Below, in pieces: positions 48,081 to 49,061 of a stretch of 64,000 bases of DNA. Under the pieces are notes generated by a model. It ran no database searches, was not told the DNA's origin, and was given only the letters and a program-made list of their open reading frames with translations. The translations under genes were made by a program, and so were the position numbers. How positions within the stretch are numbered: the stretch's first letter is position 1; every line of letters starts with the position of its first letter. The stretch lies in assembly GCF_003991155.1 (NCBI RefSeq), contig NZ_CP031293.1. One strand, 5' to 3'. Source of the DNA: Escherichia coli (GTDB lineage Bacteria; Pseudomonadota; Gammaproteobacteria; Enterobacterales; Enterobacteriaceae).

Positions 48081-48092
48081 TTGTCTGAGATC

Positions 48093-48170
48093 AGAGATAC
48101 GGCTAATAACCGTATCTCTTGACAGAGTGAGCATATGCACATAAATTAATCACACGGTTGATAGCCGTAT
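48093..48170 (+). promoter_or_regulatory. Putative promoter and operator of the toxin-antitoxin operon: -35 TTGACA (48119-48124), -10 TAAATT (48142-48147, 17-bp spacer), flanked by two ACGG-N7-CCGTAT palindromic sites
   Basis: Read directly: AGAGATACGG-CTAATAA-CCGTATCTCT (48093-48119, perfect 10-bp arms) abuts the -35. A second site ACGG-TTGATAG-CCGTAT (48154-48170) lies just downstream of the -10. SD AAAGAGG sits 6 nt before the antitoxin ATG. Confidence 0.55.
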
Positions 48171-48223
48171 TATGCATGAGATCGACTCCCTACGATTTCA
48201 TTCAGTTAATCAAAGAGGTCATA

Positions 48224-48535
48224 ATGCCTGGAAAAACAGTCGCTCTACCCGATATCGATAAAACGCTGAAAAATGCGCGGGTTGAACTCAAAACCAGTCC
48301 CGACGCCAAAAACAAACTTCGTGAAGCTGCGCAAGCCGTTGGGGTAGATTTAAGCGCTTTTATTTTGAGCGCAGCTATGGAACGCGCCGAAAGTGTGCTT
48401 GATAACCAACGTCGCCGTGAGCTTTCGAATCAAAGCTGGGAACTGATGAACCAACTCATCGCTGAACCTGCTCAACCGACGCTCGCCCTCAAGGCGTTAA
48501 TGAAAAGGAAAAACAGCGATGGTCGACAAGCATGA
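48224..48535 (+). CDS. Putative type II antitoxin, DUF1778 family (TacA/AtaR/KacA-like), 103 aa
   Basis: MPGKTVALPDIDKTLKNARVELKTSPDAKNKLREAAQAVGVDLSAFILSAAMERAESVLDNQRRRELSNQSWELMNQL... resembles DUF1778 antitoxins. Strong SD; stop overlaps the downstream acetyltransferase start by 17 nt. Start chosen at 48224 rather than the track ORF start 48158, which lies in the promoter. Confidence 0.75.
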   Translation: MPGKTVALPDIDKTLKNARVELKTSPDAKNKLREAAQAVGVDLSAFILSAAMERAESVLDNQRRRELSNQSWELMNQLIAEPAQPTLALKALMKRKNSDGRQA

Positions 48536-49061
48536 AGAGATTACTCTGCCCATAGTCCTCTCCTGTAATTATCAGTCTGATATTATTTATCCTGGGCAAA
48601 AACAGTTTGATTGCGGTAACCCTGTTATCGATAAATTTGTACGCGCATCGCTAAAGAAAAGTGTGCGTAATAGCGACTGTGCTGCTAAAGCTCTTATTGA
48701 CAGACAAAGTGGTGAACTGATTGGCATCTGTACTTTTACGGCATATTCGCTGGAAAAACAACGCGTTTCTGGCGTCCTTCAGGGTTCACAACCTTCAGAG
48801 ATTGGTGTTGTCAGATTAGTCATGTTAGGGGTAGCGCGGAAATATCAAAAGCGGGGCTTTGGTCAGGACCTACTATGTAATTTTTTTGAACATGTAAAAA
48901 TAATTCACCGGGCATTACCAATTAAAGGGGTTTATCTTGATGCTGACCCTGCCGCCATTAACTTTTATACTCGCCTCGGCTTTGTTCAGCTTTCAGCGAG
49001 GCCCAATGTTTTCGGTGCTGTACCGATGTTTTTAGCGATTCAGCATATTCTCGCGGCTTAG
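48519..49061 (+). CDS. Putative GNAT-family acetyltransferase toxin (TacT/AtaT/ItaT/KacT-like), 180 aa
   Basis: N-terminal FDCGNP motif (matches the FDCG(E) motif I recall in AtaT-type toxins) and acetyl-CoA motif RKYQKRGFGQDLL (Q/RxxGxG/A), C-terminal INFYTRLGF. Overlaps and is translationally coupled to the upstream small DUF1778-like gene. Confidence 0.8.
   Translation: MVDKHEEITLPIVLSCNYQSDIIYPGQKQFDCGNPVIDKFVRASLKKSVRNSDCAAKALIDRQSGELIGICTFTAYSLEKQRVSGVLQGSQPSEIGVVRLVMLGVARKYQKRGFGQDLLCNFFEHVKIIHRALPIKGVYLDADPAAINFYTRLGFVQLSARPNVFGAVPMFLAIQHILAA

Follow-up and report, generated by a model that had tools for sequence, protein, structure and literature searches.

The closest described relative of the locus reported here is the ItaR-ItaT toxin-antitoxin system, which was defined in E. 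coli HS (Wilcox et al. 2018, PMC6125619; locus tag EcHs_A0501), and of which BL21(DE3) carries a copy, ECD_00377-00378 (PMC6125619). In HS, ItaT produced on its own halts growth and shuts down translation, and ItaR neutralises the toxin. ItaR and ItaT bind each other tightly, and it is the resulting complex, not ItaR alone, that represses the promoter, with a 172-bp upstream fragment showing promoter activity that is repressible by the ItaRT complex (PMC6125619). The primary substrate of ItaT, Ile-tRNAIle, is acetylated in vitro (PMC6125619); acetylation of the secondary targets, Val- and Met-tRNA, has been seen both in vivo and in vitro (PMC7367177). In ribosome profiling with ItaT, ribosomes pause when they reach Ile codons, chiefly AUU and AUC, and overexpression of Pth counteracts the toxicity (PMC9177977), which places the block at elongation.

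Two further systems share this layout of a GNAT toxin and a DUF1778/ribbon-helix-helix (RHH) antitoxin, with the antitoxin gene upstream: KacA-KacT of Klebsiella pneumoniae (5ZGN, 5XUN) and AtaR-AtaT of E. coli O157:H7 (6AJM, 6AJN, 6GTS). In both, the toxin-antitoxin complex is a repressor at palindromic operators, which the KacA4KacT2 and AtaR4AtaT2 heterohexamers contact via the RHH β-strand, KacA R8 and R12 being essential (PMC6698736). TacA-TacT of Salmonella (5FVJ, 7AK8, 6G96/7ZG5) belongs to the same toxin-antitoxin family, and the antitoxin's Pfam family takes its name from TacA; the mechanism of TacT toxicity is also that of ItaT, namely aminoacyl-tRNA acetylation that is reversible by Pth. 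The toxins differ in the tRNA that they prefer: ItaT favours Ile, AtaT favours Gly among others, and the TacT proteins, unlike ItaT, prefer Gly-tRNAGly. In a published phylogeny, ItaT belongs to clade B, AtaT to clade A (PMC9177977). TacT furthermore acetylates TacA, whereas ItaT is reported not to acetylate ItaR (PMC6125619).

How does the present locus compare? With high confidence we identify it as itaRT, the type II toxin-antitoxin operon found on E. coli chromosomes, and more precisely as the rarer of the two allelic forms of this operon. Within the 64-kb stretch of DNA that was analysed (the window), the preliminary description had singled out two overlapping genes in antitoxin-then-toxin order, and both the list of open reading frames (ORFs) and the raw sequence bear this out: itaR is followed by itaT on the same strand, downstream of cyoE, and the 17-nt overlap occupies 48519-48535 (Table 1). 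On the E. coli HS chromosome, as in the window, cyoE is followed by genes for a DUF1778 protein and a GNAT protein, then by a convergent TPR gene and by yajR, and the HS and window pairs have equal gene lengths (312 and 543 nt) and an equal overlap. The window pair is orthologous with ItaR-ItaT of HS: it occupies the shared locus with intact ORFs, and its catalytic, substrate-pocket, tRNA-binding and dimer residues are intact. Taken as a whole, the window resembles HS in the cyoE-yajR locus, the three-gene island, the 17-nt overlap and the reported functional residues, and departs from it in six ItaT and three N-terminal ItaR substitutions, a mismatch in the second of two palindromes (O2), and the inactivation of the TPR gene. 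The system is already characterised and sits at its usual chromosomal site, so the candidate is not new and the finding is an ordinary one. RefSeq gives the two genes the generic labels "DUF1778 domain-containing protein" and "GNAT family N-acetyltransferase"; the names itaR and itaT can be assigned with confidence, and the significance beyond correct annotation is small.

Table 1. Features of the itaRT locus, in positions of the window.
Feature	Position	Strand	Description and basis
cyoE intrinsic terminator	48052..48081	+	13-nt perfect stem ATAAAAAAGGTGC/GCACCTTTTTTAT; inverted repeat, empty-site alignment
Accessory segment (~2.2 kb)	48082..50275	.	replaces ~70 bp of the 148-bp cyoE-yajR spacer; empty-site alignment
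Palindrome O1, ATACGGCTAATAACCGTAT	48097..48115	.	perfect ATACGG-N7-CCGTAT, 0 mismatches; abuts the -35 hexamer
Predicted sigma-70 promoter of itaRT	48119..48147	+	TTGACA, 17 nt, TAAATT; 10/12 matches
Palindrome O2, ACACGGTTGATAGCCGTAT	48152..48170	.	one mismatch, which the HS copy (ATACGG...CCGTAT) lacks; lies shortly past the -10 hexamer
itaR	48224..48535	+	103-aa ribbon-helix-helix (TacA1/DUF1778) antitoxin; ORF list, Pfam, RefSeq start, HS comparison
itaT	48519..49061	+	ATG start; 180-aa GNAT aminoacyl-tRNA N-acetyltransferase toxin; ORF list, PDB, Pfam, HS comparison
TPR/Sel1-repeat gene, pseudogene	49117..49961	-	signal-peptide-bearing, secreted; convergent to itaRT; third island gene

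Searched against all PDB sequences, the toxin has its best match in 7BYY, ItaT(G115D) of E. coli HS (residues 1-180, E 4.5e-114), in which G115D was engineered so that an inactive protein could be crystallised (Zhang et al. 2020, PMC7367177); the window toxin carries the wild-type G115, and the engineered G115D is the sole difference from 7BYY in the acetyl-CoA (Ac-CoA) loop. KacT, AtaT and TacT proteins follow as more distant matches (E 1e-6 to 4e-3), with KacT and AtaT at 1e-6 to 1e-5 and the similarity of TacA-TacT to the window pair weak (E about 2e-3 to 4e-3). The likeness to toxins of the AtaT/TacT/ItaT type, which the preliminary description had put forward, is borne out by these alignments, in which the window proteins fall in with the solved AtaT/AtaR, KacT/KacA and TacT structures as well as with 7BYY. 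Similarly, the GNAT assignment was upheld by a Pfam profile check (Acetyltransf_7/10/1, E 1e-7 to 1e-5), and the motifs quoted for the toxin are where they were said to be, FDCG at residues 30-33 and QKRGFG at 110-115; FDCG and the Q/RxxGxG motif are shared between ItaT, KacT and AtaT. The window toxin has the traits of its family, i.e. the GNAT fold, the Q/RxxGxG/A motif (QKRGFG) and a C-terminal catalytic tyrosine (Y150), and its computed mass of 19,957 Da may be set beside the published 19.8 kDa (PMC6125619).

Compared with the genomic ItaT of HS, 174 of 180 residues are identical, the exceptions being I23T, N121D, R131Q, T151A, R161T and V164A (window to HS). Checked against the published list of functional residues (PMC7367177, PMC6125619), the window toxin retains its general acid, Y150, and an unaltered Ac-CoA motif, Q110-x-x-G113-x-G115, whilst the aminoacyl pocket (V36, I37, F40, M102), the tRNA-surface residues (K39, R42, K46, K47, R50, K80, R82) and the dimer-interface residue L133 are identical to those of HS. 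All residues proven by mutagenesis (G115, Y150, V36/I37, K46/K47, K80, L133) are kept, and the six substitutions lie elsewhere. By orthology, toxicity, neutralisation, tRNA targets and autorepression would carry over from the published work on the 97%-identical HS proteins. The preliminary description held that the tRNA target and the activity of the toxin could not be read from sequence; for the 97%-identical protein the literature answers both. Published work on the HS allele includes expression of the toxin by itself, rescue when the antitoxin is present, mutation of the glycine that binds Ac-CoA and identification of the acetylated aminoacyl-tRNAs (PMC6125619, PMC7367177, PMC9177977).

Could the window allele nevertheless encode a functionally altered ItaT, with a changed aminoacyl-tRNA preference or toxicity, such that the HS targets are not simply transferable? 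There are grounds for asking. T151 (A in HS) adjoins the general acid Y150, R131 lies two residues from L133 at the dimer interface, and three of the changes raise the charge, N121 (D in HS), R131 (Q in HS) and R161 (T in HS), so that the window protein has a net charge of +3 relative to HS ItaT and a pI of 9.14 versus 8.59; evolutionary shifts in the specificity of GNAT toxins are also known (PMC9177977). However, the pocket proposed to select the side chain (V36, I37, F40, M102) and the positive α1/α2 tRNA surface are unchanged, five of the six substituted sites fall in columns of the PDB alignment that vary among the solved GNAT toxins of the family (residue 23 precedes the aligned region), and the dN/dS of itaT between window and HS is 0.12, with no hint of adaptive change. 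We therefore regard an altered enzyme as improbable, albeit the best placed of the alternatives to an itaRT operon that works as it does in HS.

That the upstream product would be DUF1778-like was confirmed by the Pfam profile check, in which PF08681 (TacA1, formerly DUF1778) matches ItaR residues 19-96 over model positions 1-78 of 80 (E 1.3e-17), and the motif DLSAFILSAAMERAESVLD that had been quoted for it is present. ItaR aligns end to end with KacA and AtaR (PDB alignments, E 3.5e-11 and 8.6e-9, respectively), and the DNA-reading R8 and R12 of KacA align with R19 and K23 of ItaR; the alignment offsets reveal an N-terminal extension of about 13 residues in ItaR that is absent from KacA and AtaR. 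With HS ItaR it shares 100 of 103 residues, and the three substitutions (V6A, A7T and I11V, window to HS) are all N-terminal to the RHH domain; the dN/dS of itaR between window and HS is 0.29. Its start is placed at ATG 48224, which is preceded by the Shine-Dalgarno sequence AAAGAGG and is the RefSeq start in a window-identical strain, and the resulting computed mass of 11,370 Da agrees with the published 11.4 kDa (PMC6125619). We rejected a 125-aa antitoxin starting at TTG 48158, the mechanical start of the ORF, which lacks a Shine-Dalgarno sequence, begins about 10 nt past the predicted -10 hexamer, and is also at odds with the published 11.4-kDa size and the RefSeq annotation.

Upstream of itaR, TTGACA-17-TAAATT is the best promoter-like site of the region, and its hexamers are conserved in HS. 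This predicted promoter is bracketed by two ATACGG-N7-CCGTAT palindromes, O1 and O2, whose centres are 55 bp apart; the core of O1 is identical in E. coli HS, and its extended 13-nt arms span 48093-48119. Promoter and palindromes all lie inside the 172-bp region upstream of itaR and are conserved between the two alleles, the itaRT promoter region being 98% identical between window and HS. Since the KacA4KacT2 and AtaR4AtaT2 complexes bind palindromic operators, we propose that the two palindromes are predicted ItaRT operators, and by this analogy the assignment is probable. The pattern itself, allowing up to two mismatches, occurs four times in the 64-kb window against 1.7 matches expected by chance; O1 and O2 are notable only by their position, by being a pair formed of the two best pattern matches, and by their conservation. 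The terms "palindrome", "operator" and "inverted repeat" are absent from the text of the Wilcox paper (PMC6125619). Going further, one might suppose that the minority ItaT allele differs measurably in toxicity or aminoacyl-tRNA preference, or that the palindromes are operators, perhaps bound cooperatively with DNA looping; we would call this a long shot, and an altered minority allele or an operator role, if true, would add only incrementally to what is known of the system.

Drawing these elements together, the operon would work as follows. ItaT would be a dimeric GNAT enzyme that acts mainly on Ile-tRNAIle and secondarily on Val- and Met-tRNA; the blocked aminoacyl-tRNAs would fail in elongation, ribosomes would stall at Ile codons, and growth would stop. 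ItaR, an RHH protein encoded just upstream and presumably coupled to ItaT in translation via the 17-nt overlap, would bind and neutralise the toxin through its C-terminal part. The operon promoter would be repressed by the ItaR-ItaT complex and not by ItaR alone, and, to judge from KacA4KacT2 and AtaR4AtaT2, this repression may be exerted by the complex sitting on the two palindromes that bracket the -35 and -10 hexamers.

The surroundings of the operon mark it as part of an accessory island comprising itaR, itaT and the convergent TPR/Sel1 gene. The preliminary description had cyoE and yajR as adjacent, with a short spacer, in K-12, and this was confirmed: the island-free spacer between the two genes measures 148 bp in the K-12-like strain 4FA, in O157:H7 and in a B2 strain. 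The third gene of the inserted segment, the convergent TPR/Sel1 pseudogene, was absent from that description. The cyoE terminator is the last stretch that the window has in common with island-free strains, and the left junction follows directly after 48081; the right junction is fuzzy and lies near 50275, and the sequence from there to 50360 is homologous to, but diverged from, the region upstream of yajR in K-12, so that yajR promoter sequences differ between island-bearing and island-free strains. Alignment with empty sites uncovered no flanking direct repeats, integrase or tRNA at the island junctions. GC content is 27-47% within the island versus 51-57% in the flanks. The right end of the island, from the start of the TPR gene towards yajR, is very AT-rich (49950-50350, GC 27-31%).

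A megablast search of 5426 complete E. coli genomes recovered the entire segment from 1367, and the remainder have the flanks only. The island occupies 1370 places in all, one of them on a plasmid-classed record, and one genome has two places. Two discrete itaRT alleles are apparent, which diverge by about 3.3% in nucleotides, with no intermediates in the identity bands: the window-type allele (at least 99% identity) is found in 102 genomes, and the HS/BL21(DE3) type (about 96.7%) in 1267. Over the region compared, the window does not differ from E. coli 2016C-3878 (100% identity). Between window and HS, the dS of itaT is 0.12, against 0.107 for the flanking cyoE and 0.10 for yajR, so the island would appear to have diverged together with the chromosome backbone; a dS close to that of core genes, combined with the dN/dS of 0.12, points to an old, vertically inherited and constrained allele. 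The comparison indicates that the itaRT island is neither a recent acquisition nor a decaying remnant, and that it is under purifying selection. The dS of about 0.10 from E. coli HS seen for cyoE (47149-48039) and yajR (50368-51732) also sets the window lineage well apart from phylogroup-A strains, HS and K-12 among them.

The converse reading, in which itaRT is a decaying remnant whose genes are intact by chance, with the toxin inactive or the module unexpressed, has some circumstantial appeal, as chromosomal toxin-antitoxin modules are often dispensable, the island is missing from three quarters of complete E. coli genomes, and the adjacent TPR gene of the island is a pseudogene in the window strain. 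Alignment with HS shows that a 91-bp deletion has split the latter into 49404-49961 and 49117-49398; RefSeq annotates this TPR gene as frameshifted, and strain H9 has the same frameshifted annotation. Yet the gene is intact, at 311 aa, both in E. coli HS and in EC17CM2, a window-type strain with the same itaR and a near-identical itaT, and the intact copy in EC17CM2 confines the TPR deletion to a sub-lineage. In the operon itself, neither ORF is truncated and each has a good ribosome-binding site, no catalytic residue has been lost, and conservation extends to the promoter and the palindromes; a dS equal to that of the core genes and a dN/dS of 0.12 argue for long-term purifying selection across both alleles. 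Decay of itaRT is in our view very unlikely. The least likely alternative, and one to which we give hardly any weight, is that the physiological substrate of ItaT is a protein or small molecule and that tRNA acetylation upon over-expression is a side activity: the related AtaT is reported to acetylate the protein EspB (PMC7957018), and the Pfam and NCBIfam matches are to generic GNAT families only, but ItaT acetylates Ile-tRNAIle in vitro, with in vivo LC/MS, Ile-codon ribosome pausing and rescue by peptidyl-tRNA hydrolase telling the same way (PMC6125619, PMC7367177, PMC9177977).

Among the PADLOC-DB v2 defence models, no family matches ItaR or ItaT at E ≤0.01, and itaRT is not catalogued as a defence system in PADLOC. 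NCBIfam returned only sub-threshold generic matches, MobA/RelB-like for the antitoxin and RimI/MshD-like for the toxin, and no ItaT-specific NCBIfam model reached its cut-off with the window toxin. What may be useful to those working on GNAT toxins is the wider picture, i.e. an island that roughly one in four complete E. coli genomes carries, BL21(DE3) included, in two old alleles and with conserved predicted operators.

A last observation concerns the break in the TPR gene. In EC17CM2 the gene contains an imperfect 15-nt inverted repeat, 80% complementary, with its arms 131 nt apart, which at the deletion junction in the window has been turned into a perfect 22-nt inverted repeat (49413-49434 and 49461-49482) around a 26-nt loop. 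An Rfam search of 47900-50500 at a permissive threshold gave two sub-gathering matches in all. One, to potC, is a chance match (E 0.85). The other, to the plant microRNA MIR5229 at 49405-49488 on the minus strand, scores 44 bits against a gathering threshold of 80 (E 8.5e-8) and was rejected as an RNA gene, the match being spurious because of the perfect hairpin that the TPR deletion has made. The rewritten junction in the TPR gene bears the signature of a quasi-palindrome, template-switch mutation.
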